Positions 35,702 through 54,219 of a stretch of 64,000 nt of DNA are shown piece after piece. Source of the DNA: Pirellulales bacterium (GTDB lineage Bacteria > Planctomycetota > Planctomycetia > Pirellulales > JAICIG01); contig JBBDYJ010000038.1 in the NCBI GenBank assembly GCA_040901675.1, positions 32,001-96,000 on the forward strand, read 5' to 3'. The notes under the pieces were generated by a model. It saw only the letters and a program-made list of their open reading frames with translations, was not told the origin of the DNA and searched no databases. How positions within the stretch are numbered: position 1 is the stretch's first letter; each line of letters begins with the position of its first letter. Position numbers and translations under genes: made by a program.

Positions 35702-36457
35702 ATGACCGAAAAATACTGGCTGCTGAAGTGTTGCCGCCTCTTCGAGCACCTCGCCGGTGAACAATTGGGCCGGCTCGAAAGATGCAGCCGGGTTCGGACC
35801 TTTGCGCGTGGCAGCCCGATTTACCTGCCCGCCGACGAAGCCAACGGCGTGCTGGTGCTCGCCAGCGGACGGGCGAAAATCTGCGGCTTTTCGGCCGACG
35901 GAAAGCAGGCGATCCTGGCCTTCGTCGAACCGGGCGAACTGTTCGGAGAACTGGCCCTCTTCGAGCAAGGTCCGCGGGAAGAATATGCCGAGGCCGTGGA
36001 AGCGTCGAAAGTCGTACTCATACCTGGCGACGACCTGCAGCGGCTGATGGAAGAATCTCCCGGCCTGTCGCTGGGCATCACCCGGCTGATCGGGCTCCGC
36101 CGCCGGCGCATCGAGCGCCGGCTCAAATACTTGCTGTTCCGCTCCAACCGGGATCGCCTGGTCAACCTGCTGTTGGAACTGGCCGAGCAATACGGGACCA
36201 GGAAACCGGAGGGACTGCTTCTCGACATCCGTTTGTCTCACCAGGATTTGGCGAGCATCATTGGGGCCACCCGTGAAACGGTCACGGTGATTCTGGGCGA
36301 GTTGCAAGCAGAGGGGTGCCTGAAGCTTGGCCGGCGCCGGATCGTGTTGATCCAGCCCGAGCGGCTGGCGGCAGGTGTCGAAGCGCCCGTGCCACGCCCC
36401 GCGGGGATCAAGCCGCTGCCGGCGCGCGACGCGAAAGCGCTTCCACGCATACTGTGA
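35702..36457 (+). CDS. Crp/Fnr family transcriptional regulator
   Basis: cNMP-binding-like domain (GELFGELAL) and HTH LSHQDLASIIGATRETVT. Confidence 0.93.
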   Translation: MTEKYWLLKCCRLFEHLAGEQLGRLERCSRVRTFARGSPIYLPADEANGVLVLASGRAKICGFSADGKQAILAFVEPGELFGELALFEQGPREEYAEAVEASKVVLIPGDDLQRLMEESPGLSLGITRLIGLRRRRIERRLKYLLFRSNRDRLVNLLLELAEQYGTRKPEGLLLDIRLSHQDLASIIGATRETVTVILGELQAEGCLKLGRRRIVLIQPERLAAGVEAPVPRPAGIKPLPARDAKALPRIL

Positions 36458-36468
36458 GATGTTTCACC
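36453..36468. promoter_or_regulatory. CRP-type box TGTGA-GATGTT-TCACC
   Basis: 9/10 match to TGTGA-N6-TCACA, 78 bp upstream of 36546. Confidence 0.65.
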
Positions 36469-36545
36469 GAGAAACCCCAGCAAACTTGCGATAAAACAGG
36501 TGGCGGCGGTCAGTTGCGACAGCTCCGCCCCAGGATCGAAGAACC

Positions 36546-38000
36546 ATGCCTCGAAAACCCGCCGACCCCGATCGTTGGCAACCGTGCCCGCCAGGCGAGC
36601 TCGTTGGACTCGCAGGTCGATTAAAGGCCAAGCGCCGCAGACGCGTGATCGAGGCGGCCCTGGCCACGTCCCTCGCGGCCCTGCTGATGGTCTGGGCCGG
36701 CGTTTATTTCGGCGTTCAGCGATCCCCGCAGCCGACCGACTTCGAATTCGGCGGCATCGCGTGCAGCGAGGTTCGCCCAATTGTGGCAAAGTACATGTCC
36801 GGCGAGCTCGATCCGGCGCTGGCCGCCCGCGTGCGCGAGCACCTTGCCCACTGCGCTGCTTGCGGGAGATTGATGGAGGGCGTGCAGAAGTCCGTTTCGG
36901 CGCCGTCGCTCCCACCGCGCCTTGCCGAGCGCCCAGGTGTGGCCGCCGTCATCGGCAGCCGGCCGTTGATTTCGCTGCGCGCGGTGGCCCTGTGGGCACT
37001 TTTCAGTGATGCCGCGGCTGACGATGCCGAGATCAGCCCCGCCGGCTGGCTGGCCGCGTTCGCGGACCAGTGGGATGACCAACGTTGGCTGTCCAAGCCC
37101 TCGGGCTACATGCGGCCGCTCGACGACGAAGGTTGGCGGGCCCGGATGCGGGCTTTCCAGGCACTGGTCAAGGCGGGGAGCGGCTCGGTCGACCCATTGC
37201 TACAAACTCTGCGCGAAGGGACCACCACCCAACGGATCCTGGCCGCCCAGGTGCTCGGCTATCTGGGCCAGGATGTGCCGCGCCAAGCGTTGATCGAAGT
37301 CGCCCGCGCCGACTCGGACCCCGCCGTCCGGCTCTATGCGATTGCTTCGTTGGGGATGCTTGGTGCCGCGGAACAGGCCGCTTTGCTCCAGGAATTGGCC
37401 GAGTCGGAATCGAATCGTGACGCGAAAAAACACATTGCCTATGCCGTGGGCCGCAATGGGCGGCCGCTCGACGCCATGGTGACAGCCAAGCTGGCCGGAT
37501 GGGACCTCGGCCGCCTCGACACGGCCAAGCTGGGACAAGCGGCGCCCGATTTTGAGTTGACCAGCTTGTCGGGCGAAACGGTCCGGCTGAGCCAGTTTCG
37601 TGGACAAAAGGCGGTGGTGCTGGTCTTCGTCTACGGCGACACGTGACCGGTCTGCCACAGGCAGCTCGCGCAGTTGCGCGACAACCTCAAGGCGATCGAG
37701 GCCGCCGGCGCCCAGCTCCTGGCGGTCGATCCACACGAATCCTGGTCAGCCAAGCACCTGCTCCAAGAGGTGGGCCTGGACACGGCCGACGTGCACTACC
37801 CGTTGCTCAGCGACCCGTCGCTGGTGGTCAGCGCCACCTACGGCGTCGCCTTCCAGATGCGGATCCACACGGAACTGAGCAACCGGCCGGCCACGTTCAT
37901 CGTCGATAGGGAAGGCATCCTCCGGTATGAACGCCGGGCGACGACGTTCTCCGATCGCCCCGCGGTGGACCAGGTCCTCTCGGAACTCAAGAAGCTTTAG
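36546..38000 (+). CDS. Putative selenoprotein: TM + zf-HC2-like + HEAT repeats + AhpC/TSA redoxin domain with U-P-V-C (TGA 37644-37646)
   Basis: ORFs 36546-37646 and 37674-38000 share one frame; APDFELTSLSGETVRLSQFRGQKAVVLVFVYGDT-TGA-PVCHRQL...RPATFIVDREG; hairpin TCGCGC-AGTT-GCGCGA downstream. Confidence 0.82.
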
Positions 38001-38502
38001 ATCCAACGCCTGGGCTGCCGCCGGTGCCCTCCACGTCCTCCACCGCGCCGGTAGGTCTGCGGCGCGCCGCGCGCCCGGCAGCCCACAAGACGACTCCGGC
38101 CACTGTTACCGGGACGACTGGAATCTCGATCAGCGTGGCCAGCACAAAGAAATATCGCTGGATAAAGTAAGACTGCCGCCAGCCGGATGCATGGGGCAGC
38201 CATGTCATGGCCTGCCAGATTGCGATTGCCGCCAATCCCACCGCGCCCGCGGCAAACAGCACCACGCCAGCTCGCCGCAGTGTAGCGGGTTTGGACGTTC
38301 GCCAGGCCAGCATAACCGGTCCGGCAAGAAGCACGGCCCAAAACGCATGGCACGACACGAGGGTCTGTAGCGGTGGGCCGCAACCCCAAGGGCCGCAGAT
38401 GTCGTGTCCCCAGTCCCCCGGTAGCTGACCGATCTTCAGGGTACCGAACAGAGCGGCCGCCCAACCAGCCGTCGCCAGTGCGCGCAAGACAAGCCGGGGC
38501 AC
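37987..38502 (-). CDS. Membrane protein with HxxCGPWGCGPP motif
   Basis: GTG start with AAGGAG RBS; four TM segments; HDICGPWGCGPP...SCH. Confidence 0.7.
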   Translation of the reverse strand: MPRLVLRALATAGWAAALFGTLKIGQLPGDWGHDICGPWGCGPPLQTLVSCHAFWAVLLAGPVMLAWRTSKPATLRRAGVVLFAAGAVGLAAIAIWQAMTWLPHASGWRQSYFIQRYFFVLATLIEIPVVPVTVAGVVLWAAGRAARRRPTGAVEDVEGTGGSPGVGSKAS

Positions 38503-38586
38503 CTGCTTCTCCTTCCCCCATCGAGGCCCGTCCAGATTGTACCGCGGGTGAGGGGGGGCGTGTGTGAGCCGGCACACACTGCTCTC

Positions 38587-38657
38587 GCTTTTTTCAACGG
38601 GCTGTCTGGTTTTGCAGGGCTTGGAACGTTGTATAGATAGGACCTTCCTGCCGCCGC
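38587..38657 (+). promoter_or_regulatory. Putative ECF-type promoter, copy A (upstream of precursor/MNIO operon)
   Basis: 60/71 identical to the reverse complement of 54149-54219. Confidence 0.75.
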
Positions 38658-38670
38658 ATTTGGTTGGCCA

Positions 38671-38686
38671 TGTGTGCCATTTCACA
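38671..38686. promoter_or_regulatory. CRP-type box TGTGT-GCCATT-TCACA
   Basis: 9/10 consensus match; a further box TGTGA-GCCGGC-ACACA lies at 38563-38578. Confidence 0.55.
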
Positions 38687-38795
38687 GTCCGCCGGCGGAT
38701 CAGGGATTAAGGTGCGGGAAGCGGGGGAAGCAGGCAAGGCGGTTCGCCTGGTCCCGACCGTTGTTCCATTCTTTGCACGCAAGCAGGAGACTGGC

Positions 38796-39227
38796 ATGAA
38801 GAAAACTGGCTTGACTCGACGTGACTTTCAGAACCTGTCGCTGGCGGCCGCGGGAGGCCTGCTGATCGGCGCCGGCGGCACCTCGGAGGCCTCCGCTGCC
38901 CAAGACAAAAGGAACGCCCAAGACAAGGACGATGACAAGAACCCGTTGCTGGTCGAGCCGCACGTCTGCCGCGGGCTCAACGCCTGCGCTGGATTGTCGG
39001 CCTGCGCCACGGCGGAGGCCCACGACTGCAAGGGTCAGAACGCGTGCAAAGGCCAGGGGGGCTGCGGCGCTCGCCCGGGCGAAAACGCCTGCAAGGGAAT
39101 GGGTGACTGCGCCGTGCCGCTCACGGAAAAGAAATGGAAGACGGCCCGCGCCCGTTTTGAGCAGTTGATGAAAACGGAACGCAAGGAATTCGGCAAGGCT
39201 CCGACAACGGGTAAGGCGAAGTCATAG
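38796..39227 (+). CDS. Cys-rich bufferin-like (BufA2-type) MNIO precursor with twin-arginine signal
   Basis: AGGAG RBS; TRRDF signal and ASA cleavage-like site; 8 Cys including CKGQNACKGQGGC and NACKGMGDC; directly upstream of DUF692. Confidence 0.82.
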   Translation: MKKTGLTRRDFQNLSLAAAGGLLIGAGGTSEASAAQDKRNAQDKDDDKNPLLVEPHVCRGLNACAGLSACATAEAHDCKGQNACKGQGGCGARPGENACKGMGDCAVPLTEKKWKTARARFEQLMKTERKEFGKAPTTGKAKS

Positions 39228-39258
39228 CCTGCCGGTGCGCTTCGGCACCAAGTCTCCT

Positions 39259-39301
39259 CGGCCGCCGCGGTGGCCCGCTACCACCGCGCCGGCCGCTTTT
39301 T
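39259..39301 (+). terminator. Hairpin with U-tract between precursor and MNIO gene
   Basis: CGGCCG-C-CGCGGTGG-CCCGCTA-CCACCGCG-C-CGGCCG-CTTTTT. Confidence 0.55.
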
Positions 39302-39377
39302 GAATCGCCCGCCCGCGCGGAAGTTGGCTTTTTCCCATTCTCGTTAAAAGTGCAGTCCTTGAGCCAGGCAGCGTCAA

Positions 39378-40301
39378 ATGAGCCCGCAGCGTTTAGGTCA
39401 TCCCGATCTTGGCATGGGCGTGGGCCTGAGGTCAGCCCATTTCTCGCACATCCTCGAACACCAGCCCGGGGTCGATTGGTTCGAGGTCATCTCCGAGAAC
39501 TTCATGGATTCCCAGGGGCGGCCGCGCTACGTCGTCGACCAGATCGCCGAGCGATATCCGCTGGTCATGCACGGCGTTTCACTTTCCATCGGCAGTTGCG
39601 ACCCCCTCAATTTCGATTACCTCCAGCGGCTCAAGCGCCTGGCCGACGGCATCCGGCCTCGCTGGATTTCGGACCACCTCTGCTGGACCGGCGTGATGGG
39701 CCTCAACACGCACGACCTGCTGCCCATTCCCCTCAACGAGGAATCGCTCCGGCACGTGGTCGAGCGGATCCGGATCGTGCAAGACTTTCTCCAGCGTCCG
39801 CTCGTGCTCGAGAATCCGAGTACCTACGTGACGTTTGCCGATTCGACGATCCAGGAGTGGGAGTTCGTCAGCCGCATGGCCGAGGAGGCCGACTGCGGGC
39901 TGCTGCTCGACGTGAACAACGTTTACGTGTCGAGCGTCAACCACGACTTCGATCCCACCGAGTATATCGGGCGGCTGCCTCATCGGCGCATCGTGCAGTT
40001 TCACCTGGCGGGCCATACCAACTGCGGCACGCACTTGATCGATACGCACGACGGCCCGGTCATCGACCCGGTGTGGGAGCTTTACCGGCTGGCCCACGAG
40101 CTCACCGGTGGCGTGTCGACGCTGCTGGAGTGGGACGCCAAGATCCCCGAGTTCCCCGTGGTCCATGCCGAAGCGCTCAAGGCCCGCCGCTGGCGGCAGG
40201 CCCACTCCAGCCCGCCGCCGGCCACCCGCCCGGCCATCCCGGCGGCGGCCCCCGTCTCGGTGCCGCAGCCGCTGGCGCACCTGGTGGTGGACGTTTCATG
40301 A
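39378..40301 (+). CDS. DUF692 multinuclear non-heme iron oxidative enzyme (MNIO, BufB-like)
   Basis: [56 protein letters not shown]. Confidence 0.95.
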
Positions 40302-41179
40302 GTGGTCAGCCTGCCAACTTGGCGCGCCTGCAGCGCTGGATGCAGGCCGTGATCATGCACCCGGACGGGGTCGAAGGCGGCGTGGGGTCGCCCGAAGCGC
40401 GGCGGCTGGTCGATATCGCGTTGGATCAACTCGAACAGGTGATCCACCCTTCGCGGGCGCTCGGCAGCGCCGAACGGCTCGAGATCTATGTGGATGCCTA
40501 TCATCTGCGGCTGATGGATTGCCTGCGAAACCAGTTTCCCGCCCTGGTGAACGCTTTGGGTGAAGCGACCTTCGATGCCGTAGCGTTCGGCTACCTGGGA
40601 GCCTACCCGTCGCGTGGGTATTCTTTGAACAAGTTGGGCGAAAACCTCCCCCAGTTCCTGGCCCAGAACCGCCCGCACGAGTCCGCGGCGCCCGCTGATG
40701 CGCCGTCGAGCTGGCCCGACGGCATCATCGAGCTTTCCACGTTCGAGCGGGCCGTGCAGGAGATCTTCGACGGCCCCGGCGTCGAGGGACAACGGCTGCT
40801 GGAACAAGCGGAGCTGTCGGCGATCGCGCCCTTGGATTGGCCCGGCGCTCGCCTGAAGTGTGTCGAGTGCTTGCGCCTGTTCCGCTTCGCCCATCCCGTA
40901 AACGCCTGGTATTCGCAACTGCGGCACGTCCCATGTCCGCCTCCAGGCCCGTGCGAGTCGCACGTCGCGCTGGTGCGGCAAGATTATACCGTCCGTCGCC
41001 ACGAGCTTTCGCGCCCCCAATACGAGTTGCTGCTGTGCCTGGCGGCGGGCAGCTCGATCGCTTCGGGCATGGAAGCAGCGCTCGGCGGGGCCCGTGACGA
41101 CGTGGCGGACTTGGCCGTCCAAGTGCAGGGCTGGTTTCAGCAATGGGCGACGGGGGGCTTTTTCAGCGGTGTCCAATGA
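40298..41179 (+). CDS. DUF2063-type MNIO partner protein (BufC/HvfC-like)
   Basis: ATGA overlap with DUF692 gene; ERLEIY..AY..RL..CL..QFPAL...LGE..F. Confidence 0.88.
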
Positions 41180-41323
41180 GCGCGTGGAATGTGGTGCCGG
41201 ATACAGAAGCGGCCACGGCCCGCGCACTATGCTAAACAGCCGGGCGTTTTCGAAAGGCTTTTTGGCGTATTCAAGCCCGGGTTTACCCGGTTGAGCTCTT
41301 CAATTCAGTTAGGAGTCGCTTGC

Positions 41324-42514
41324 ATGACTCGGGCGCAAACAACCGCGAATTCATCGCGTCGAGCGGCGCGATGGGCCGGCGGATTGTTGCGGGTGATCGC
41401 GGTCGCGGCCTTGGTTTGGACCGCGTTGTATTGGCACGCCCTTGATCCCACGTACTTGGCGCAAAATGTCCCAGGGCGCCGCGCGCCGCCGAGGCAGACA
41501 TTCGATCTCGAACGGCTGCTCTTGCCTCGGGAGCGGGTTCTGTCGGGAGGCGTGCCCAAAGACGGCATCCCCGCGCTCACCAACCCGCCGCTCGTGCCCG
41601 CCGCCCAGGCCGAGTACCTCCAACCTGGCGACCGGGTGATCGGAGTGGTCATCCAGGGCGAGGCGCGGGCCTACCCGGTCATGGTTCTCACGCGGCACGA
41701 AGTGGTCAATGAGCGGGTGGGCGGCATGCCCGTCGCGGTCACCTATTGCCCGCTGTGCGATTCAGTGGCCCTCTTCGACCGGCGCACCGAGCTCGGCGAG
41801 CGCGAGTTCGGCGTCTCCGGCCTGCTCTACAACAGCAACGTGTTGATCTACGACCGCGGCGGCAAGTCGGAGGGCCTCTGGTCTCAGTTGCTGGCCGGCG
41901 GTGTCTCGGGTCCCGGCTCCGGCACGCCGCTCAAACCGCTTCCCGTGGAGTTGACCACGTGGGCGGATTGGACCGAGCGCTATCCGGAAACCAAGACGCT
42001 TGCGGCCAGCGACGCCGAAGGACGCGCCTTTCGCAACAATCCGTATCGCCGCTACCTTGCCAGTCCGGACCTGATGTTTCCCGTGCAGCCGATCGACAAG
42101 CGTTTGCCCCTGAAGGAGAGGGTGCTGGGCGTTTGGACCGGGAAGGCGGCCCGGGCCTACCCGGTGTCGGCACTGGCCAAACTGCGGGAGCCGTTGTCCC
42201 AGGAGATCGACGGGCGCAAGTTCACGCTGGTCTACAACCCGAAGGCGCAAAGCGTGCGCATGAGCGATGCCGACGAGGGCCTGCATTGGATGTACTCGTT
42301 CTGGTTTGGCTGGTTCGCGTTCCACCCCGACACGGAACTGTTCACGGCGCGGGACGCGGCGGGCACACCGCGCCGGCCAAAAACTTCCAGCCGGGCGACT
42401 CCGGAGGCACGAAATCCCGTCAAGCAGCGCCGCGCCGGCTTCGCGCCAGCCGACGGGGACCGGCCTCCGGCTTCGACGGTTTCGTCAATTCGCTGGGCGA
42501 AGCACTTTCTGTGA
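41324..42514 (+). CDS. DUF3179 family protein
   Basis: SGGVPKDGIPAL, ARAYP...HEVVN, VTYCPLC, FGVSGLLYNSN..YDR, FWFGW.AFHP. Confidence 0.9.
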   Translation: MTRAQTTANSSRRAARWAGGLLRVIAVAALVWTALYWHALDPTYLAQNVPGRRAPPRQTFDLERLLLPRERVLSGGVPKDGIPALTNPPLVPAAQAEYLQPGDRVIGVVIQGEARAYPVMVLTRHEVVNERVGGMPVAVTYCPLCDSVALFDRRTELGEREFGVSGLLYNSNVLIYDRGGKSEGLWSQLLAGGVSGPGSGTPLKPLPVELTTWADWTERYPETKTLAASDAEGRAFRNNPYRRYLASPDLMFPVQPIDKRLPLKERVLGVWTGKAARAYPVSALAKLREPLSQEIDGRKFTLVYNPKAQSVRMSDADEGLHWMYSFWFGWFAFHPDTELFTARDAAGTPRRPKTSSRATPEARNPVKQRRAGFAPADGDRPPASTVSSIRWAKHFL

Positions 42515-42525
42515 GATAGGGCACA
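42510..42525. promoter_or_regulatory. CRP-type box TGTGA-GATAGG-GCACA
   Basis: 9/10 match, about 135 bp upstream of 42661. Confidence 0.6.
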
Positions 42526-42660
42526 GTTTGAGCACCGGGTTCGATGTAGCATCATTCGTGTCATCCTTGCCAAAGGGTCAGCGGATGGCATGGATTTGAG
42601 CCCTGCAGCGTTGGCTCGTTTCGGATTGCCGACAGTTTAAAGAAAGGAGACCGCTTCATC

Positions 42661-44292
42661 ATGAGAGTTTTGACAAGCTTCGGCCTGGCGGCGGCCCTGT
42701 GGGCCGGCGCGTCGGCCGCAAGCGCCGGAGAACTGAAGAGCGGCCTGCAGTCCGGCGATTCAGTGGGCGCCTTCGATGTAGTCAAGATCGCCGGCGCGGC
42801 CGACGACGGCGTGCAGGTGGGCAAAAAGCTCTGCTATCGGTGAATGTACGGTGGCAGACCCGTCGTCATGGTTTTCACCCGGAAAACCGACGCGGCCTTG
42901 GCCAGTTTGGTCAAGCAACTCGACAAGTTGGTGGCGAAGCACGAAGAGCAGCAACTGCGGGTGTTCGTCAACCTGATTGGTGAAGACAGGGAGGCCTTGG
43001 AGGCGGAGGCAAAAAAGTTCGGCGCGAAGCACAAGGTCGCCAACGTGCCGATCGTGGTCCCGGTGGAGCACGAAAACGGCCCCGACAACTTCGGCATCAA
43101 TCCGGATGCCGCGGTGACCGTCACGCTCTACAGCGGGCTCAAGGTCAACTCCAGCCATGCCTTCGACAAGTTCAAGAAGGACGACGCCAAAACGGTCCTG
43201 GCGGACGTGCCCGCGCTACTGGAGGAGTCCGCTGCCGCCTCCGACGAGGCCCAGACGGACGAGGCGAACTTTCACGCCTCTGATCACTACGGGCGTCTTG
43301 ACTTCTCGCCCGACGGAGCGCGGTTGGCCGTGGGCGGACCAACCGGGCAGATTCACGTTTGGAATCTGAAGGAGAAGAAATTCGTCCGCGTCCTACGGCG
43401 CAGCGACGAACGGATGCTGGAAGACGTCGCGTGGAATCCGCAGGGCACCAGGCTGGCCGCTGTGGACATTTGGGGCCGTCTGTCGATCCACGACGCCGCC
43501 AGCGGGAAAGAGCTGCATTTCCTCTCGGCACGACGTCGAGAAGAGGCGATCGGCAGCAAGGAGAGGCTCGTCGCGAGTCTCGCTTGGAATCTTGCCGGCG
43601 ATTCAATGGTCCTGACTACAGCGAACGGATTTGCCGTCTGGAACCCGGACGTTCCTGCGGAATCCGAGGCGGCGGTGCCGGACACGGACGACGACCGCTT
43701 CTCCGCCTGGCACGGCACAATCAGCGCCGACGGACGGCGGCTGGCGCAAGTCGACGAGTACGGCAAGTTCCGGGTGTGGAATTTGCACACGGGCGAAATC
43801 GCCCTGCGGTCTGCGGATTTCAAGGGATGCCAGGTCTATGTCGCGTGGAGTCCCGACGATCGGCGGATCGCCCTGAGCAGCAACTCGACACTCCGCATCG
43901 TGGATGCTCGGACGGGAGCTATCGTACGCGACGTCGAAACACCCCAACAGTCCTCGATTGTCGCTTGGAGTCCAGACAGCAAGATCCTGGCGGTGGCCCA
44001 GGGCTGGCTCAACCGATGGAGCAGTTCCGACCGCCCCAATAAGGCGATCTCGCTTGTCAATTCGGAGGACGGAACCATCCGTCACAGGCTCAACTCGGGA
44101 TTGATGAACATCGAGGCCCTGGCATGGAGCACGGACGGCAAGACCCTTGCCTCGACTGGCTCCTCCAAGGTGTGGAGGCTCGACCGGAACGGCGATCCGC
44201 AGGTCGTCGCGAATCCGGAGATGCCGGTCTCCCTGTGGGATGCAGAGAACGGCAGGCTGTTCTATCAAATCACTCCGGCCGAAGAACCGTAA
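42661..44292 (+). CDS. Putative secreted selenoprotein: thioredoxin-like domain with C-Y-R-U (TGA 42841-42843) fused to WD40 repeats
   Basis: AAGGAG RBS and signal peptide; GKKLCYR-TGA-MYGGRPVVMVFTR continuous in frame; hairpin GGTGGCAGACC/GGTTTTCACC after TGA; WSPD-type repeats. Confidence 0.8.
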
Positions 44293-44359
44293 GAGGTCCT
44301 TGCGGTCATTGGAGATCACCACACTATGGCCTAACCAGTCTCCCCGTGGAGCACGAAAG

Positions 44360-45340: not shown

Positions 45341-45547
45341 CGCCCAACCTGGATGCGGCAATGCAAGGATGAATCTGTGAGCGGATCGGATTACGCGATT
45401 CTCAGCCGATAGTTGGGGTCACACCATTCCGGTTCGACCCGGTCCCTCCCGATCGCGAAGGTGCACTTGCCTGGTCGCTGCTGTTGGAGCGAGAAGGTCC
45501 CGGGCGGAATGCCACCGGCAGCTAGCTTGTCACCTCCTGGCCGACCC

Positions 45548-45931
45548 TTATGCCCCGGACTTGACTTCCGTGCCGCCGTAACCGGCCTTCTTGAGCGCAT
45601 CCAAGAGGGCCTGCTCGTCATATTGGTCCGACACCACGGTCACAACGGCTTGCTCCTTGGACAGATCGACCTCAGCCTTCCTTACCCACGGTAAGGATTC
45701 GAGTGCCTCGCGCACTCGCGGTGGTCAGCCGAACGGTCATGTCATGCCTGACACGGAAATGGCAACCTGACGCAAGTTAGCATCGAGCACCGCCGGCGCA
45801 TCCTCCCGGTCGCCTCCTGATGCACCGGAAGGGTTGGGCCATTGATTCTGCTGGCATCCGGCGATCGCCACCCACGCACCGATCAACACCAACCCGGTCC
45901 TTGCCTTACGTGCAGGCGTCAACATGGACAT
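45548..45931 (-). CDS. Putative two-selenocysteine heavy-metal-associated (HMA, MerP/CopZ-like) lipoprotein, GMT-U-PFG-U
   Basis: IAGC lipobox; VAISVSGMT-TGA(45739-45737)-PFG-TGA(45727-45725)-PPRVREALESLPWVRKAEVDLSKEQAVVTV...LLDALKKAGYGG; TAA at 45550-45548; hairpin CGAGTGC-GCGAG-GCACTCG. Confidence 0.85.
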
Positions 45932-46016
45932 ACTCCTCGACAGGGGAACGGAACACGAGCTGCCACGCCGCTGCTTTGCCCGCCAGCGAGTTTACCACGA
46001 GTGGTCATTTAGCTTC

Positions 46017-46032
46017 AGTGAGCTAATTCACA
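46017..46032. promoter_or_regulatory. CRP-type box AGTGA-GCTAAT-TCACA
   Basis: 9/10 match, 86 bp upstream of the HMA gene start. Confidence 0.65.
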
Positions 46033-46076
46033 ATTTCGCTCAAACCGCAGGGACTGCAAACGATGCCCGGCGATCA

Positions 46077-47849
46077 TCAACCGCCGGCGCCGGCCGGACG
46101 GGCGGCCGGGGGCTCGCCGATGGCACGCAGCAAGCGGGCCTGGGCGCGATTGTAGTCGGACACGGCCCGCGTGTAGGCGTTCTGCGCCTCGGTACGGGCC
46201 CGGATGGCCTGCTGCAGCTCAATCGGCAAGCCTTCGCCCTGACGAATCCGCCCCAGGGTGAGACGCAGCGCCTCGCTGGCGGCCGCCACGTTTTCCAGGG
46301 CGATGTCGAACTGTTCCCGATAACTGCCGACGTCGGACGACGCGGTGACGATCTCGGCAGCCACGAGATCCCGCGCCAGGCTGGTCTCGAACCGCGCCTG
46401 GCGCATCTGGCTGGCACGCTGGCGGCGCAGCACGCCATTGCCAAAACCGAGGTTCCGCAACTCCCAGGCTGCAATCGCATCCAGGTCGCTGCGGCTTCCC
46501 TGGTTGTCGAATTGGCCGGAAGGACCTCCCCCAAAGCTCCCCGCGCTGGCACCCACCGCAAGGTGCGGCAGCCAGGGACGCCACCGTTCCTGGTCCAGGC
46601 GTTCCAATGCGGCCCGCACCAGCGCCTGCTGCTGGGCCAGCTCGGGCCGGCTGGTGAATCCTTGCGCCAACAGCGCCTCCAGCGGCATCTGCTCGTTGAC
46701 CAGCTCGATGGGCACGGCACGCTCCTCGGCCGGCACCAAGACCACCCCGGGCGCCAGCCGCAGGAGCCGCGCCAACTCGGCGCTGCGCGCCCGCACCTGC
46801 CGCAGGCTGTCCGCGGCCGCCTGCCGCCAGAACGCCAGTTCGGCGTTGGCGCGGTCGAACTCCGACCGCGCACCACGCCCCTCGCGGAAAAAACTGCCGG
46901 TGATCTCCGACATCTCCCGCGCCGCGGCCACACCCGATTCGGCGTTGGCCAGCAGGCCGTCCGCCTCGACCACGTCGAAATAGGCCGTGGCCACGGCCAA
47001 CAGCGTATCGTTGACGTCGGTGGTGCGGGCGGCCGCTTGTGCCCGCACCAGTTGCCTGGCGACCAGCGGTTCAAAAGCGGCGTCGGCCAGGGCCAGATCG
47101 ACAAAGAGCCGCGCCGGGCCGCCGGCGGCCCCGTTGAGAGGGCGCGTTCCCAGCCCGGCGCCGCCGCCCACGAACAGCGAGCTCCGCCCCGCTTCAATCA
47201 CCTCGCCTTCGGTCGCCTGCAGTCGGCCGTCGTGCTTGTTGTATCCCACGGCCGCCCGCAGCGAAGGTATCCATAGCAGCCGTGCCTGGTCCAGGTTTGC
47301 TTGGGCTTCGACCACGCGCTCGCGAGCCAGCCGGATTCGCAGGTTGTTCGCCCCCGCCAGGGCCAATGCGTTGGCCAGGTCGATCGGAAAGGTCTCGCCT
47401 TGGAAGGCCACCGCGGGTCTGGGCAGCGGCAGGCTCTCCGGAGTCGCCGTCCTGGCTTCCGCGCCAGGCATCGCTTCCGCGCCAGGCGTCCGCCGAGCCG
47501 AAGGCCGGTCGTCCGTCGGATCGTTGCCCGTCTGGGACTCGGCCACGCTCGGAGCGTCGAGAACGAATTGCACCCGGGCGGCAGAGTGGCTGCCGGCGGC
47601 CGGCCCATCTCCCCGGTCGCCGCCGGCCTGCACCACCGGTAACTCCGAGGCGGGCTCGGCGGCAGAGGCTTGCCTGGCCGGGTCGGCTTCGACCGGCTGC
47701 ATCCATGCTCGATCCAGCGGCAACGACGCTACGGGCCGGTCGGCCGTCACCGTGCGCGAATTCAGCGGCAACCCCGTCTGACATCCCACCACGGCCGCAC
47801 AAGACCCGACCCACCACGCGATTGAGCGGCGCCTCTTGATTGCATCCAT
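46077..47849 (-). CDS. TolC family outer membrane protein
   Basis: VVGC lipobox-like signal, IDL..AL.LA...N, two OEP-like helical repeats, YNRAQARL; follows RND and MFP genes. Confidence 0.88.
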   Translation of the reverse strand: MDAIKRRRSIAWWVGSCAAVVGCQTGLPLNSRTVTADRPVASLPLDRAWMQPVEADPARQASAAEPASELPVVQAGGDRGDGPAAGSHSAARVQFVLDAPSVAESQTGNDPTDDRPSARRTPGAEAMPGAEARTATPESLPLPRPAVAFQGETFPIDLANALALAGANNLRIRLARERVVEAQANLDQARLLWIPSLRAAVGYNKHDGRLQATEGEVIEAGRSSLFVGGGAGLGTRPLNGAAGGPARLFVDLALADAAFEPLVARQLVRAQAAARTTDVNDTLLAVATAYFDVVEADGLLANAESGVAAAREMSEITGSFFREGRGARSEFDRANAELAFWRQAAADSLRQVRARSAELARLLRLAPGVVLVPAEERAVPIELVNEQMPLEALLAQGFTSRPELAQQQALVRAALERLDQERWRPWLPHLAVGASAGSFGGGPSGQFDNQGSRSDLDAIAAWELRNLGFGNGVLRRQRASQMRQARFETSLARDLVAAEIVTASSDVGSYREQFDIALENVAAASEALRLTLGRIRQGEGLPIELQQAIRARTEAQNAYTRAVSDYNRAQARLLRAIGEPPAARPAGAGG

Positions 47850-47966
47850 GCGAATCGTTCCTGTCGTTGGTCGCTCAATCCGATCCAGCCGGCATCTTCC
47901 CTCTATCCGTTGTAATCGGAGGCGATAGTCAGCTTTGTTGAGGAACTTTCTTTAAAGCGCCTCTTC

Positions 47967-49301
47967 CTACTCGTCTTGTCCGCCGTTGGCCGAAGGTGAA
48001 AGGCGAACCTCGACCTTCTGCCCGTCGGTCAATCGTTCGCCGGCGCGGGCCACCACGGTTTCTCCAGGCTCGGCGCCGCTCGCCAGCCAGACCACGGTGT
48101 CCTTGCGCAGCACCGAAACAGGGCACCTGCGGACCCGGCCCTGCTCGACGATCATCACGCAATCGCCGCGGTCGTCTGAAACCAGGGCCGCCGCCGGAAC
48201 CGTCGGCGTGTCTCGCCGGGTGTCCAACGTCAACTCCACGTTTCCCAGCACGCCTGGCTCCAGTTTCCGCCTGCCGTAGGACCCGTCGACCGGATTGTCC
48301 AAATCGACTTCGGCCCGCATCTTTCGCGACCCTTCGTTGAAAGCCACCGCATACCGCGATATTCTCCCCTCGATCGGGTTGCCACTGGGCCCGCGAAACA
48401 CAACCGGATCACCCACGTTGAGCTTGCCTGCCGCGTCCATCGTGAGCCAGACCACCAGCCGCAGCTTGTTGTTACGGACCAGCGAGAAGAGCGGCTTGGC
48501 GCTGCCGGCGCTGGCCGGCCGCACAAACGTGCCCCGGTCGATCATGCGGCCGGTGACGACGCCGGCAAATGGCGCCCTGATGACGGTGAACGATTGCATG
48601 GCCTCGGCCTTCTCCCGTGCTGCTTCGGCCGTGCCGATGCGGGCCTCGGTGCTGAGGACATGGGCCTGGGCGGTGTCGACCTGGGCAGCCGCCCGCCGCA
48701 GCGAGGCCACGGATGACTCGAGGGCATAGCGGGCCTCGTCGCGCAATTGCCCCTTCAGGCTGCCGTCCTCGACCAGCGCGGTAATACGCTGGTATTCCGC
48801 CTGGCGCAGCCGCCTTTGCGCTTCGAACTCCTCGACGGTCGCCTTGGCTTCCTCGAATTCGGCTTTCTTACTCGCCAGGTCGGCCTGGGCCTGCTTGACC
48901 AAGGCCCGGCTCTCAGCAACCGCAGCGAGCAACTCGGGCGCGGCGACCGTGGCCAGCACATCCGACTCAGCGACCTCGTCGCCGATGTCCACGTTCACCT
49001 TGTCGATGTACCCCTCGACACGGCCCATCAATTGCACGGTCTCGTAACCGTCGACGTTGCCCGTCAGGTTCACGACCTCTCGCAAATCCGCCGACCGCAC
49101 CGTGGCCACCTCGACCAAGGCGGCCTGATCGGCGGCGGCGCCGGTTGCCGCTTCCGAGGCGGCATAGTCGCAGCCGGCCAGGCCGACCATGGTCAAGGCC
49201 GCCAGCCCGGCGATGGTCAAGGCCGCCAGCCCGATCAGCAAGGGCAAGAAGGCCCTCGCCGAAACGGCCGCGGCGCCGGGTGTGATGAGGTTCTTTTGCA
49301 T
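47967..49301 (-). CDS. RND efflux periplasmic adaptor (MFP)
   Basis: RVEGYIDKVNVDIGDEV, coiled coil, IRAPFAGVVTGR. Confidence 0.92.
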   Translation of the reverse strand: MQKNLITPGAAAVSARAFLPLLIGLAALTIAGLAALTMVGLAGCDYAASEAATGAAADQAALVEVATVRSADLREVVNLTGNVDGYETVQLMGRVEGYIDKVNVDIGDEVAESDVLATVAAPELLAAVAESRALVKQAQADLASKKAEFEEAKATVEEFEAQRRLRQAEYQRITALVEDGSLKGQLRDEARYALESSVASLRRAAAQVDTAQAHVLSTEARIGTAEAAREKAEAMQSFTVIRAPFAGVVTGRMIDRGTFVRPASAGSAKPLFSLVRNNKLRLVVWLTMDAAGKLNVGDPVVFRGPSGNPIEGRISRYAVAFNEGSRKMRAEVDLDNPVDGSYGRRKLEPGVLGNVELTLDTRRDTPTVPAAALVSDDRGDCVMIVEQGRVRRCPVSVLRKDTVVWLASGAEPGETVVARAGERLTDGQKVEVRLSPSANGGQDE

Positions 49302-49361
49302 CGGTCGGCTCCATCATTTGTTGGCAAAGTTGCAAAGTTGTGCACGCCCGGCAATGTCGCC

Positions 49362-52300
49362 TCAGTTCGCCGGCAGGGCTTCTTGGGGCATCCGCTTGAA
49401 CATCACGTACAGGCAGGGAACGACCAGCAGCGAGAGTGCGGTCGCCCCCAGCACGCCTCCGATAATGGCCCGCGCCAGCGGCATGTTGGCCTCGCCGCCG
49501 CCAAAACCGAAAGCCATGGGCAACAGCGCAAGCCACGTCGTGACGGAGGTCATCAGGATCGGCCGCATCCGGACCTGCGCGGCATCGACAATCGCCTCTT
49601 GAACTCCCAACCCCTCGCGGAGGCGGTGGTTGGCGAAATCGACCAGCACGATCGAGTACTCGACCACGATCCCCACCATCATCACGATTCCCATGAAGGC
49701 CATGATCGAAAGACTCGTTCCGGTCAGGTACAACAGCGCCACCACGCCCACGAACCCCAGCGGCACGGTGAGCATGACCACGAAAGGATCCGCGAAGCTG
49801 CGGAACTGCGCCACCATGACCAGGTAGACGAGCAAGCTGGCGATTACCAGCCCGCCGGAGAACTGGGCGAACGATTCGCGCATGCTACGGACCTCGCCCT
49901 GCATCTCGAAGGCGTATCCCTTGCCGGCGAACTTTTCGCCCTCGACCTGGTAGACGCGCCCCCGCTCCGTGCGGCCGGCCTTGGCCCCCAACTCCGGATT
50001 GGCCTCCAACCGCCGCTCGATCGCCGCCACCACCGAGCCCACATCGAAGCCCGGCAGCACGTTGGCGTACACGTCCGTGGCGCGGGTGATGTTGTGATGG
50101 TTGATCACGGCCGGGCCGGTCGTGCGCTCGATCCGCGCCAGGTTCCGCAGCCGGGCCGGTTCGCTGCTGTTCACCCCGGTGATCGGGATGTCGAGCAACG
50201 TATCGAGCGAATTGATGTCTTCCTCCCGATACTGCACGCCCATGAAGTAGTGGTTCCCGTTGCGCTCGTCGATCCAGAAAGCCGGGTCGAAGTTGATCGA
50301 GCTGTTGGTGGCGCTCACCAGGTTCTTCATCACGTTCTCGGGCGTCACTCCCTGGTACGCCGCCAGCACGCGGTCCATGTTCACTTGCAGAATCGGGTAG
50401 TCCATCCGCTGCGCGATTCGCACGTCGGCAGCCCCCTCGACTTGCCGCGCCTCGTCGCGGATCATCACGGCGATCTCCTGCGCGGTGTCGAGATTCGATC
50501 CCGTCACCTGGAAGTGAATGGGCGACGGCTCCCCCATGTTCAACGCCGCCGTCATCATGCCGCCCGTGTCGAACGCGAATTCCACCTCCGGGAACCGCCG
50601 CGTCAACTCGCGGCGCAGGCGGTCCACGTACTCGAATGTGCCCGGCTGGCCGGCCTTCCCCTTGAGCTGCACCAGGATAAAGGCGTCCATCGGGCCCGTG
50701 TTGGGCGTGTAGGCGGCCGGCCAGTCCATCAGCACGCCGATGTTGGAAATCAGGATCTGCATGTTCGATTCAGGAACCTGCTCGTCGCCCAGGGCAAAAG
50801 CGGGGTCGGGCCGGCCGATCTCGGCGATCAGCGCCTGTTCGATCTCGTCGATCCTGGCTTCGGTCCGCTCGATCCGCGTTCCCGACGGCATCCGCGCATA
50901 GATGGTGAACTGGCCCGCGTCGACCGGCGGGAACAGCTCGGTCCCCAGCCGCGTCAGGCCCACCACCGAGACCACGAACAGCACGGCGGCCGCCAGCACC
51001 ACGGCACGCCGCGCCCGCAGCACGCCCCGCAGCAGCCGCCCGTAGGCCCGCACCAACCCGCCGGCGCGCTCGGTTCCCCCGCCCGCCGGCACGCGCAGAA
51101 AGCGCGCGCAATAGGCCGGCACGATCGTGATCGACAGCAGGTAGGAGGCGGCGATGGCGATGCTGGCCGAGACTGCCAGCGGCGTGAACAGGAACTTAGC
51201 CAGCCCCGACAAAAACACGATCGGATAAAAGACGACGATGAACGTAATCGTCGAGACCAGGATCGGCAGGGCCACTTCACGCGTGCCGTCCAGCGCGGCC
51301 TCGAATGGCTTCTTGCCCATCTGCGCATGCCGCACCACGTTTTCCAAAACCACGATCGACTGGTCGACCAGGATGCCGATGGCCAAGGCCAGCCCACCCA
51401 GCGTCATGGCGTTGATCGTGTCGCCCGTGTAGAAAAGCCCGACAACCGCCGCCAGGATGGCCAAGGGAATCGCCAACACGATGATCAGCGTCGATCGCAG
51501 GCTGCGGAGGAACAGGAGCACGACGACGCCGGCCAGCACGGCCCCCAAGCCGGCCGCGATTTGCAATCCTTGGATGCTCTGCCGGACGCCAACCGATTGG
51601 TCCATGGCCACCGAGAGCACCAGTCCCTGGATCTTCGGGTCGTCGGCGTTCATGTCCTTCAGCCGGCTCAGCATCTGGTCCAGCCGGTCCTTGATCGAGT
51701 CGACGATCTGGATGGTGTTGGCCCCCGGCTGCCGGTAGATGGGAATGTACACCTGCCGAGCCCCGTTGACCCGCACCACGTTGGTCTGAATCTGGCCCGC
51801 GTCGCGCACCTCGCCGACGTCCTGCATCAGCACCGGAGCCCCGTCGACGATCTTGATGGGAGCCTGGTTCAGCTCCTCGACCAGCCGGGGAATCGAGTTG
51901 GTGAAGATCTGGAAATCGTAGTCCCCGATCTTGGCGTTCCCGGCGGGGATCAGCACGTTCTGTTCCCGCAGCGCCTGCTGCACGTCCATCAGCGAAAGCC
52001 CCCGCGCCTCCAGCTTCTCGCGGTCCACATAAGCCAGGATCCGCCGCAGCTTGCCGCCGTACACCGCCGGCGCAATCACTCCCTGGATCGACTGCAGCCG
52101 GTTGCGCAGCTCGAAATAGGCGATGTCGTACAGCTCCTTCTCGCTCATCTGCGGATTCGAGACCACCACCAGGCACAGCGGCACCGAGGCCGTGGGATCA
52201 AACGGCATCACCATCGGCGGGATCGTGCCCGGCGGAAGGTAGTACATGTCGCTCACGGCATAGCTGGTCACCTGCGACATGGCCGTGTCCATCGAGATGT

Positions 52301-52610
52301 TCTCGTGGAAAAAGTCCTTGACCACGGAGACGCCCAGCATCGCCTTGCCTTCCTGGTGCTCGATTCCCATCGACTGCCCCGTCCAGCGCTCCATCCGGCT
52401 CATGATGTCCTTTTCCATCACTTCCGGCGGCATGCCCGGATAGAAGGTCAGGATTTGCACCGCCGGAGTCTTGAACGTCGGCAGCAAATCCCGCGGGATC
52501 GGCTGGATCCCCAACGCCGGCACCCCCACGTAGGAGACGCTGCCCAGCACGAGAATGGCCAGCGCCGCCACGATCACCAGGTGCGGGTTATTGAGCGCGG
52601 TTCGGATCAT
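49362..52610 (-). CDS. RND efflux permease
   Basis: 1082 aa; INAMTLGGLALAIGILVD, RMRPILMT, PLARAIIGG. Confidence 0.95.
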   Translation of the reverse strand: MIRTALNNPHLVIVAALAILVLGSVSYVGVPALGIQPIPRDLLPTFKTPAVQILTFYPGMPPEVMEKDIMSRMERWTGQSMGIEHQEGKAMLGVSVVKDFFHENISMDTAMSQVTSYAVSDMYYLPPGTIPPMVMPFDPTASVPLCLVVVSNPQMSEKELYDIAYFELRNRLQSIQGVIAPAVYGGKLRRILAYVDREKLEARGLSLMDVQQALREQNVLIPAGNAKIGDYDFQIFTNSIPRLVEELNQAPIKIVDGAPVLMQDVGEVRDAGQIQTNVVRVNGARQVYIPIYRQPGANTIQIVDSIKDRLDQMLSRLKDMNADDPKIQGLVLSVAMDQSVGVRQSIQGLQIAAGLGAVLAGVVVLLFLRSLRSTLIIVLAIPLAILAAVVGLFYTGDTINAMTLGGLALAIGILVDQSIVVLENVVRHAQMGKKPFEAALDGTREVALPILVSTITFIVVFYPIVFLSGLAKFLFTPLAVSASIAIAASYLLSITIVPAYCARFLRVPAGGGTERAGGLVRAYGRLLRGVLRARRAVVLAAAVLFVVSVVGLTRLGTELFPPVDAGQFTIYARMPSGTRIERTEARIDEIEQALIAEIGRPDPAFALGDEQVPESNMQILISNIGVLMDWPAAYTPNTGPMDAFILVQLKGKAGQPGTFEYVDRLRRELTRRFPEVEFAFDTGGMMTAALNMGEPSPIHFQVTGSNLDTAQEIAVMIRDEARQVEGAADVRIAQRMDYPILQVNMDRVLAAYQGVTPENVMKNLVSATNSSINFDPAFWIDERNGNHYFMGVQYREEDINSLDTLLDIPITGVNSSEPARLRNLARIERTTGPAVINHHNITRATDVYANVLPGFDVGSVVAAIERRLEANPELGAKAGRTERGRVYQVEGEKFAGKGYAFEMQGEVRSMRESFAQFSGGLVIASLLVYLVMVAQFRSFADPFVVMLTVPLGFVGVVALLYLTGTSLSIMAFMGIVMMVGIVVEYSIVLVDFANHRLREGLGVQEAIVDAAQVRMRPILMTSVTTWLALLPMAFGFGGGEANMPLARAIIGGVLGATALSLLVVPCLYVMFKRMPQEALPAN

Positions 52611-53497
52611 GGGGAGCCCGGGGTCGCCTCTGCGGCAAATCGAGTTGGATTAACGTCAGCGAACGAGTCGAAGGCAACGAGTCTCTGCCGCGGCGCTTCG
52701 TTCTGCGGTGCCGCGCGCCCGGAATGATGGGCCCCGTAGCCGCGCAGGATCTCCACCAGCACGTCGCGCGGCGCCCGCCCCAGCACCAGCACAACGTGCC
52801 CGTGCAGCAGGCCGGCGACCATCTGGTACCGCCCTTCCCGGCACTCGTGTAACCGTCCCTCGGCCGGCAGATGCTCCCGCATTTGCGGAAACGCGCGCAA
52901 GCTTTGAAAAGGCAAGACGAATACCGAAACAGGCTGCCGGTCCACCTCGCCCACGATGTGCACTCCCAGCTCGCGCTTCAGGCGGCACAGGCCTCCCCCC
53001 TTGAGCTCAAAACCTGCCTGCCCCCGAGGCGGGCAGCGCACCGCAAACCCGGCCCTGGGGCGCAATCGCTGCTCGACCTCCTCCACCGAGCTGCTCACCA
53101 CTTCGGCCTGCCAAGAGCCGCTCACGTAGTTCTCGTGCTCCGTCGCCGCCAGCCGACCCAGGTTGTCCGAATCGCCCAGCCGGGTGAGCGACCACAAGCC
53201 GACGGCCACGACGACCGACGCGGCCAAGGCCAACATCCACAGCCCCTTCGAGCGGCTGGCGGGCACCGCCGCATCGCTGAGCAACTGCTGTTCGATCGTC
53301 TGCCACGTGCTGGCGTTCGCCTCGCCGCGTGCCAAGAGGTCGTCCAGCAGGCCCTGCGTCCTTGCCTCGCGGGCGAACCAGGCCTTGCACTGCGGGCACG
53401 TCGCGAGGTGGTCGCTGATTTGAAAGTGCAGCTCCGCTCCTCCCTCGCTGTCGTAATAGAGATGGAAGAATTTGCGGATGTCGTTGCAGTTGGTCAT
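52607..53497 (-). CDS. zf-HC2 anti-sigma factor
   Basis: MTNC...YYDSE...HLATCPQC, TM helix, Cys/His-containing C-terminal domain; ATGA overlaps with sigma and RND genes. Confidence 0.85.
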   Translation of the reverse strand: MTNCNDIRKFFHLYYDSEGGAELHFQISDHLATCPQCKAWFAREARTQGLLDDLLARGEANASTWQTIEQQLLSDAAVPASRSKGLWMLALAASVVVAVGLWSLTRLGDSDNLGRLAATEHENYVSGSWQAEVVSSSVEEVEQRLRPRAGFAVRCPPRGQAGFELKGGGLCRLKRELGVHIVGEVDRQPVSVFVLPFQSLRAFPQMREHLPAEGRLHECREGRYQMVAGLLHGHVVLVLGRAPRDVLVEILRGYGAHHSGRAAPQNEAPRQRLVAFDSFADVNPTRFAAEATPGSP

Positions 53498-54126
53498 GCG
53501 TCTTCTCCAGCCGGTGGGGCGGAAGGAGGTGGGCTCGCCGAGGGGCGGGCGGCCTCGGCCGGATCGGTCCACCTGTTCTCCATTGCGTACTCGCTCAGAA
53601 ATGTCCGCATCCGCCGCCTCGCGCGCGACAGGTACCCCATAACGCTCGCCACCGGTATCTCCAACATCTCGTGAATCTCGTGGTAGCTGAACTCGCCGAT
53701 CGACTTGAGCAGCAAGCAGGAACGCTCCGCGGCACTCAGCCGGGCCAGGGCCTGGACCAGCGGATCCTGCAGCAGTTCGAGCAGCCGCTCGGGATCATTA
53801 TCCAGCAGACTTTCGACGGCATCGTCCGCTTGCGGCTGCTCGCGGGCCTCCTCCAGGCCCATCTCCTCCGGTATCTCGGCCAGCAGCAGCGGCTCGTGCC
53901 GGCGGTTCGCGTTGAACACCTGGTACGTCACGAAGCGGAACATCCAAGCCTTGAAGTTCGTGCCGGGCGAAAAGTTGCCAAACTCCTGAAATGCCTTCAG
54001 CACCGCGTCCTGCAACACGTCCTCGACGTGTGCCGGGTTGCGCAGCATCCGCCTCGCATACAACTGAAGTTGTTGCTCGATGGGCTTCAGCAGCTTGACG
54101 AAGCTCGGGGCGTCGGCGCGATTCAA
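53494..54126 (-). CDS. ECF RNA polymerase sigma factor
   Basis: EDVLQD...KA...F.PGTNFKAWMF; FSYHEI..MLEIPVASVMGYLSRAR; TTG start. Confidence 0.92.
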   Translation of the reverse strand: MNRADAPSFVKLLKPIEQQLQLYARRMLRNPAHVEDVLQDAVLKAFQEFGNFSPGTNFKAWMFRFVTYQVFNANRRHEPLLLAEIPEEMGLEEAREQPQADDAVESLLDNDPERLLELLQDPLVQALARLSAAERSCLLLKSIGEFSYHEIHEMLEIPVASVMGYLSRARRRMRTFLSEYAMENRWTDPAEAARPSASPPPSAPPAGEDA

Positions 54127-54148
54127 CGTTCGCTGTTTACCAATCGGC

Positions 54149-54219
54149 GCGGCGGTGCGAAGGTCCTATCTATACAACGTTTCGAACCCGCCAAAACCAG
54201 ACAGGCGGTCGAAAAAAGC
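54149..54219 (-). promoter_or_regulatory. Putative ECF-type promoter, copy B (upstream of sigma gene)
   Basis: 60/71 identical to 38587-38657. Confidence 0.75.

Follow-up and report, generated by a model that had tools for sequence, protein, structure and literature searches.

Results

The 64,000-nucleotide window analyzed here (Pirellulales bacterium, assembly GCA_040901675.1, contig JBBDYJ010000038.1, positions 32,001-96,000) contains, at 35702..54219, an array of genes that we lean towards reading as two adjacent modules of an envelope response: the regulon of a Crp/Fnr-family activator and a separately controlled efflux operon. The two are set apart because the efflux operon has no Crp site in front of it. 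Within the first module, one Crp activator very probably serves six promoters. The whole analysis is a computation on sequence; the host genome (G000) has a size of 5.4 Mb and a completeness of 89.9%, and the genomes and loci of relatives are labeled with G and L numbers, respectively. An original prediction for this DNA had listed a Crp regulator, three TGA-containing genes, bufferin parts, DUF3179 and CGPWGC proteins, and an ECF/RND/MFP-TolC set. Profile searches of the window proteins and reading of the open reading frames (ORFs) found all of these genes in their places. They were joined by a second zf-HC2 domain at the N terminus of the redoxin ORF, a WD40 region on the CYRU protein, a sixth Crp box, and a short ORF with a repeat at 44360-45353.

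The Crp regulator and its six promoters

The regulator (35702..36457, plus strand) was recognized by a profile match, carries a helix-turn-helix R-E-T motif, and is the sole match of its family profile in the host genome. Its closest Protein Data Bank matches are Mycobacterium CRP, GlxR-like, and NtcA structures. Cys-11 is conserved (52 of 59). With the cAMP-binding residues of E. coli CRP as reference, an acidic R-E/D-E follows the pocket arginine, and the C-helix reads G-L-R-R-R in place of the cAMP-binding residues.

Six boxes belong to the module. Box 1 (36453..36468, plus strand) has a weak -10 and lies before the zinc-finger/redoxin ORF. Each of the remaining five has an assigned class II -10. 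Box 2 (38563..38578, minus strand; -10 at 38541-38536) is predicted to drive the CGPWGC gene, box 3 (38671..38686, plus strand; -10 at 38708-38713) bufABC, and the degenerate box 4 (41190..41205, plus strand; -10 at 41228-41233) the DUF3179 gene. Box 5 (42510..42525, plus strand; -10 at 42547-42552) precedes the CYRU gene, and box 6 (46017..46032, minus strand; -10 at 45994-45989), the best site of the genome, precedes the HMA gene. The palindromic boxes are class II activator sites of the kind for which E. coli CRP provides the paradigm, and we infer that all six are bound by this Crp. The likeness to CRP/FNR class II activation lies in the TGTGA-N6-TCACA site, its center near -41.5, and the R-E of the recognition helix. 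The host Crp differs in its pocket residues, its small local regulon, and its near-obligate membrane zinc-finger neighbor.

Within 19.3 kb there are 5 palindromes with at most one mismatch, where the rate over the whole genome (25 in 5.4 Mb) would predict 0.09. Of 112 box sides, belonging to 56 boxes from the window and relatives' loci, 32 have a TAnnnT hexamer 21-23 nucleotides past the box. With the window boxes left out the figure is 28 of 102, and elsewhere in the host genome it is 0 of 40. An independent set of 55 Crp-centered loci, which excludes six distant matches, shows this spacing on 15 of 124 sides. A box-plus-minus-10 matrix was then trained on 43 sites of relatives only and scanned over all 5.4 Mb. 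Its top six sites genome-wide, in order, are those at 46032, 38671, 38578, 42510, 41190, and 36453 of the window, which precede HMA, bufA, CGPWGC, CYRU, DUF3179, and the redoxin ORF, respectively. The same scan found no Crp site before the ECF, RND, MFP, or TolC gene of the window. The claim that shared cis-elements tie all the genes together thus stands for the left half, with its six Crp promoters; no Crp box extends it to the efflux operon.

In G076 and G069, too, strict sites concentrate at the module, with 5 of 7 and 3 of 5, respectively. FNR-type boxes are not enriched (1 versus 0.46; 4 versus 5.7), and a generic promoter scan gave chance level. Upstream of crp, a Crp-like box with two mismatches (35581-35618) overlaps the -35 of a TTCACA-16-TAGAAT promoter, a possible case of autoregulation. 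Two strong TGTGA-N6-TCACA palindromes elsewhere in the host genome (contig C41, 30873 and 39942) have no class II -10 and may be repressing or class I sites.

A membrane zinc-finger protein behind crp

Residues 1-125 of the redoxin ORF (36546..36920, plus strand) match the zf-HC2 profile and consist of a WxxCxxG motif, a basic patch, a transmembrane (TM) helix, and a C...HxxxCxxC zinc finger. In relatives this part is a separate gene of about 150 residues, and a zinc-finger gene lies within 900 nucleotides behind 59 of 64 Crp orthologues. Residues Trp-11, Cys-73, His-99, Cys-103, and Cys-106 of the partner are invariant, and Cys-14 and Gly-17 nearly so. The order WxxCxxG-TM-HxxxCxxC with a surplus of Lys/Arg before the TM helix is shared by 51 of 57 proteins from the loci and by 139 of 150 representatives from the database; because of this order and charge pattern, the finger is predicted to lie outside the cytoplasm. 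The zinc site resembles that of zf-HC2 (ZAS) anti-sigma factors of the RsrA type. It differs in that the finger here comes after the TM helix and the gene is paired with a Crp, not with a sigma factor. A predicted complex of the Crp dimer with the first 40 residues of the partner scored 0.29 against a mark of 0.32 and counts neither way. The zinc-finger protein is the best sensor candidate of the locus; that it senses for Crp is a proposition to which we give slightly less than an even chance on these sequence patterns.

The bufferin-like operon and its neighbors

Box 3 stands before a bufABC operon. It comprises a BufA2-like precursor with a twin-arginine leader (TRRDF) and eight cysteines (38796..39227, plus strand), a BufB MNIO (39378..40301, plus strand; NF050167, 360.5 against 310), and a DUF2063 protein, BufC (40298..41179, plus strand; PF09836, 60.7 against 27.2). 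The precursor, of 143 residues, does not qualify as the DUF2282 or BUF_6/12Cys type of precursor by which bufferin clusters are defined: it falls below the BufA2 cut-off (NF050166, 41.3 against 60), and three relatives score 21-26. It has eight cysteines against nine in relatives compared by eye. At 38960-39110 about 12 residues and one cysteine of the relatives' first repeat are gone, probably by a deletion between repeats. The leader, RRDF or RREF, is of the twin-arginine type in the host and, by eye, in most relatives, whereas bufferins are defined by a signal peptide of the general secretory type. The precursor may nevertheless work like BufA2 although it lies outside that family's cut-off.

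The closest described counterpart is buf2ABC of Caulobacter vibrioides (PMC11626156, in its available text), with which the operon shares an MNIO above the BufB cut-off, a DUF2063 partner, the lack of a bufD, and a Cys-rich exported precursor resembling BufA2. The differences are those of leader, length, cysteine number, and BufA2 score given above, and the upstream Crp class II site: in that available text, bufferins bind copper and buf1 and buf2 are under SigF control. The original prediction noted that bufferins are ECF-controlled; the host operon appears instead to be mainly Crp-wired.

Of 301 genomes of the order, 114 contain a match to the precursor. Among 34 loci fetched of 225 matches (the best-scoring, with longer contigs preferred), bufABC stands alone in 30 and has Crp, CGPWGC, DUF3179, or redoxin genes nearby in 4. 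In the buf clusters of six loci (L065, L066, L069, L072, L073, and L176), an additional precursor lies between bufB and bufC.

On the minus strand before bufA lies the gene of the CGPWGC membrane protein (37987..38502), which belongs to no family. It is present in 42 of 401 genomes; 36 further CGPWGC loci hold DUF3179 in 14, Crp in 8, BufABC in 1, and RND in 1. An Atlas search with CGPWGC returned unnamed clusters alone, with low recognition. Behind bufC, the DUF3179 protein (41324..42514, plus strand) is of the cysteine form, with the motif YCPLC.

Three putative selenoprotein genes

Three genes of the module contain in-frame TGA codons, four in all, aligned with cysteines of homologues as the original prediction had it: U367 (GDTUPVC), U61 (LCYRU), and U65 and U69 (GMTUPFGU). 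The ORFs are complete as proteins when TGA is read as selenocysteine (Sec). The proposed check for Sec machinery was positive: selA, selB, and selD score above their cut-offs in the host genome, and a tRNA-Sec gene (selC) was found. On this computational evidence the three genes very likely encode selenoproteins.

The redoxin ORF (36546..38000, plus strand; UGA at 37644-37646) encodes a zf-HC2 - HEAT - AhpC/TSA-fold protein with a UxxC motif. The column of this TGA has TGA also in G100, G124, and G054 and a Cys codon in G076 and G163; an identical 18-nucleotide hairpin is found across four TGA genes. The second gene (42661..44292, plus strand; UGA at 42841-42843) encodes a signal peptide, a CYRU (CxxU) domain, and WD40 repeats. 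The CYRU domain, matched by no Pfam or NCBIfam model, is predicted to adopt a thioredoxin/peroxiredoxin-like fold (pLDDT, the predicted local distance difference test, 95). It has matches in 100 of 151 genomes, and 30 returned loci, the window included, divide into 14 TGA and 16 Cys forms. One stem-loop is common, by eye, to all 14 TGA genes. The third gene (45548..45931, minus strand; UGAs at 45737-45739 and 45725-45727) encodes an HMA protein with a lipobox-like leader, a UxxxU motif, and two downstream hairpins. Among its homologues TGA replaces the first Cys codon in 17 genes and both in 4, the window included. The two hairpins covary in 8 of 17 genes, the 8 having been selected for having hairpins. 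They stand in tandem after the UGA codons (45661-45739, minus strand), possibly as a two-part selenocysteine insertion sequence (SECIS). The codons of the second hairpin appear uncommon for a genome of 65% GC, and this hairpin occurs also in some single-UGA genes.

Not one of 19 HMA relatives was found to have a Crp box nearby, and 28 of 29 CYRU relatives have none in front; both genes look like local recruits. Sec is optional in the system, since relatives use Cys.

Table 1 of PMC13188914, in its available form, lists Prx-like UxxC, NF041115 UxxU metal-binding, DUF3179, YHS, and TIGR04167 selenoproteins. The UxxC redoxin and the two-Sec HMA-like protein are thus of listed types, and DUF3179, YHS, and ArsS have Sec members. 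The host HMA protein differs from NF041115 in its spacing (UxxxU, not UxxU) and scores 39.9 against a cut-off of 95; the same Table 1 shows no CYRU-type motif for a thioredoxin fold.

Three further observations concern Sec in the host genome. Of two CYRU-domain paralogues, at C37:11375-11950 and C32:7704-8273, one has TGA and the other Cys. An AhpC/TSA-like gene (C34:54670-55092) with a TGA in a TxxU motif (FTRGU) is a further selenoprotein candidate. SelD (L005, C41:142023-142991) ends a 775-residue open frame whose upstream part appears, by eye, FAD-oxidoreductase-like.

The efflux operon and its 71-nucleotide element

The efflux operon occupies the minus strand and encodes, in order of transcription, an ECF sigma factor (53494..54126), a zf-HC2 anti-sigma factor (52607..53497), an RND permease (49362..52610), an RND periplasmic adaptor or MFP (47967..49301), and a TolC-family outer-membrane factor (46077..47849). 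ATGA overlaps at the ECF/anti-sigma and anti-sigma/RND junctions bear out the predicted translational coupling. The RND-MFP-outer-membrane factor trio adjoining metal-binding genes recalls CusCBA/CzcCBA. Here, in contrast, control is by ECF and anti-sigma factors, and the permease lies below heavy-metal and multidrug cut-offs. Because its TIGR00914 score of 335 falls short of 701, the cut-off for CusA/CzcA, metal export by the pump is unsupported. Among relatives, a Crp box precedes none of 21 RND, 18 MFP, and 17 TolC genes and 1 of 23 ECF genes. The absence of Crp sites at the pump and the permease score speak against a single system of chelation, Sec chemistry, and export.

The operon is preceded by a 71-nucleotide element (copy B, 54149..54219, minus strand). 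Copy A (38587..38657, plus strand), a probable ECF promoter, lies upstream of bufA; the two form an inverted pair identical at 60 of 71 positions, and the host genome holds these two alone. The core, TGTCTGRTTT-N10-GRAAC, is found again upstream of the ECF orthologues of two genomes only, G125 and G061, and therefore the element is probably the ECF factor's own, autoregulatory promoter. An early search for the core in 12 relatives' loci gave weak matches only. Of the duplicated promoter that had been claimed, the duplication holds, its assignment to ECF is probable, and copy A bears no sign of selection. A cis link between the two modules through the copied promoter is possible on this pattern. 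An inversion between the 71-nucleotide repeats was considered and is not indicated, the ECF end being in the same order in G125. Before the distant ECF orthologues of L058, L081, L114, L219, L221, and L223, AATAAA, about 12 nucleotides, and CGACAT are conserved and are likely the promoter of those genes.

The anti-sigma factor is found in 20 of 401 genomes. Of its 23 loci in relatives, 12 adjoin genes of the Crp neighborhood; the other 11 do not, and four of these are short or truncated.

Conservation of the neighborhood and the assembly

Conservation of the module is partial and modular. Most of the components stand together in G076, a member of another family, which has nearly the whole set in about 45 kb, with Cys replacing Sec, amid ArsS, DUF547, and a MerA-like gene. 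The expected conservation of the neighborhood holds to this extent; it does not extend to bufABC, mostly solitary as described above, or to Sec and the HMA and CYRU genes. The 55 Crp-centered loci hold YHS (14), glycosyltransferases (12), DUF547 (8), BufABC (2), and ArsS/ArsM (2). Among relatives, 4 of 9 ArsM-like genes, 9 of 29 YHS genes, and 5 of 19 DUF3179 genes have a Crp box in front; thioredoxin, VTT, DinB, and DoxX genes are also box-preceded, and such targets often lie near ArsS. Relatives' loci contain an ArsS above its cut-off, an ArsM-like methyltransferase that scores below its family cut-offs, glycosyltransferases, DUF547, a phosphate-transporter family gene, and a MerA-like oxidoreductase. 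ArsS was not found in the host genome (best 45.9 bits against 300; genome 89.9% complete), where an ArsM-like gene gave a partial match only. The relatives' neighborhood is as suggestive of arsenic-handling and thiol genes as it is of copper. G125, of the same genus, yielded no Crp module, an uninformative result with contigs ending at 34624 and 46804 and a completeness of 86%.

Contigs of run X1 match the window with 0 differences at a depth of 78-80 over 34300-45022, 45324-46635, and 46989-54299; the run is probably the source sample, so that the match verifies the assembly only. In run X3, from a related strain, one contig of depth 4 links 42379 to 45641, that is, the DUF3179 end to the TolC end, bypassing CYRU-WD40. 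Run X4 is uninformative, with cover absent at 42971-44971.

Outside the regulon, the segment 44360..45353 contains a short ORF without family, which looks signal-peptide-bearing, followed by a high-copy repeat (44997-45353, depth 508) whose end matches contig ends. The repeat has no Pfam match and is probably an insertion sequence remnant, presumably ISAzo13-like. Left of crp, a Uma2 gene (34683-35453) that looks mobile is 97% identical to L209:7555-8232 of G125, where it lies between ECF and DUF1501 genes. Elsewhere in the host genome, 19 tRNA genes are arrayed at C14:69183-73788.

Discussion

Under the two-module account, the Crp activator would bind TGTGA-N6-TCACA centered near -41.5 and turn on six sigma-70 promoters. 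All six units would code for proteins that are exported or sit in the membrane and that carry reactive Cys or Sec. These are a chelator of the bufferin type together with its maturases, a metal-binding HMA protein, two selenoproteins with a thioredoxin fold, and the DUF3179 and CGPWGC proteins. The signal to Crp would probably come from the membrane zinc-finger protein encoded directly behind crp, whose outside C3H site may be open to attack from thiol-reactive metal(loid)s or from oxidants, and whose cytoplasmic WxxCxxG tail may relay the attack to Crp. We consider thiol-reactive stress of this kind a rather likely trigger, judging from the genes and motifs of the locus. The net role would be to guard and repair envelope thiols and to sequester soft metal(loid)s. 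The ECF/anti-sigma/RND/MFP/TolC operon would be under its own, probably autoregulatory, promoter, and the copy before bufA may supply a second input. Frequent adjacency in relatives and this one copied, probably ECF-type, promoter would link the modules.

Several observations weigh against this account. Three other Crp-bearing genomes show no excess of strict sites, with 0 (control 1), 2 (control 4), and 5 (control 9), and G001, whose Crp orthologue is 51% identical, holds only one. Boxes are present at a minority of relatives' copies (5 of 37 for CGPWGC, 5 of 43 for bufA), Crp itself is at only 8 of the 36 CGPWGC loci, and the loci used to train the matrix had been picked near homologues of window genes. 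The host zinc-finger ORF continues in frame into the redoxin, unlike in relatives. Single-sequence SECIS folds are unremarkable in three of four cases (z -1.0 to -1.6). Most other, more distant ECF orthologues have a different upstream motif. Copy A may be a nonfunctional relic, because the differences between the copies do not avoid conserved positions (5 of 11, P = 0.72).

The adjacency of the modules in 12 of 23 anti-sigma loci, their near-complete union in G076, and the related-strain contig that runs from the DUF3179 end to the TolC end could also be taken to mean a single integrated soft-metal system, with joint regulation of chelation, Sec chemistry, and RND export and with a pump that exports metal. 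The ECF-type promoter copy before bufA would fit, as would the bufferins of PMC11626156, ECF (SigF)-controlled copper chelators in its available text. We regard this as improbable: the efflux genes have no preceding Crp site, the permease is under the CusA/CzcA cut-off, 11 anti-sigma loci lack such neighbors (with the reservation that four are short or truncated), the Sec, HMA, and CYRU genes are not conserved parts, and copy A has no selection signal. A shade less probable still is an arsenic-specific regulon that serves ArsM/ArsS methylation and arsenosugar-type chemistry, with the host as a reduced remnant. It would account for the ArsS, ArsM-like, glycosyltransferase, DUF547, phosphate-transporter, and MerA-like genes of relatives and for the boxes directly before ArsM-like genes. 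The finger of the partner, moreover, has three Cys and one His, and fingers of this type are attacked by arsenite. Yet the host, in which ArsS was not found (at its level of completeness) and the ArsM-like match is partial, keeps six intact promoters; ArsS or ArsM is at only 2 of the 55 Crp-centered loci, the ArsM-like protein is under its family cut-offs, and bufferin and HMA proteins suggest Cu/Hg-type ions.

The mosaic gene content across relatives, the repeat remnant within the locus, the absence of the module from the incomplete G125 contigs, and the Crp-bearing genomes without site excess would suit an island built up by accretion, its stress genes acquired independently of one another and under no common signal, the boxes being relics or bound by another factor. 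This we hold to be very unlikely, given six top-ranked sites of fixed spacing, each ahead of a transcription unit, a box spacing conserved across families, and a single Crp-profile match in the genome.

A description of the two-module regulon was not found in the literature searched, which comprised texts without their supplements; selenoprotein tables in these could list CYRU or UxxxU families. The locus is not mentioned in the available text of 10.1101/2022.07.06.499078, PMC7826278, or PMC13326102. With respect to the ArsM/ArsS arsenosugar clusters (by NCBIfam names), relatives' copies of the regulon lie within such clusters; in the host, at its level of completeness, no ArsS was found.

As a bolder and more tentative proposal, which we think somewhat doubtful, Crp and the membrane zinc-finger protein may form an undescribed trans-membrane signaling pair, an outward anti-sigma-type zinc sensor wired to Crp. 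The pair would control a modular envelope defense across Planctomycetota, made up of a twin-arginine bufferin-like RiPP (a peptide made by the ribosome and modified after translation), uncatalogued CxxU/UxxxU selenoproteins, and ArsM/ArsS genes, with ECF cross-talk to the RND pump here.

The regulon would give a precise setting, with six promoters, one regulator, and one candidate sensor, to families without a function: DUF3179, CGPWGC, CYRU, and the twin-arginine bufferin-like precursor. It would wire a bufferin-type operon to Crp instead of SigF, and one regulator would tie together bufferin, selenoprotein, and ArsM/ArsS genes. If Crp does receive an outside signal through its zinc-finger partner, this would be a new signaling architecture, and identification of the inducer would tell what such neighborhoods defend against.

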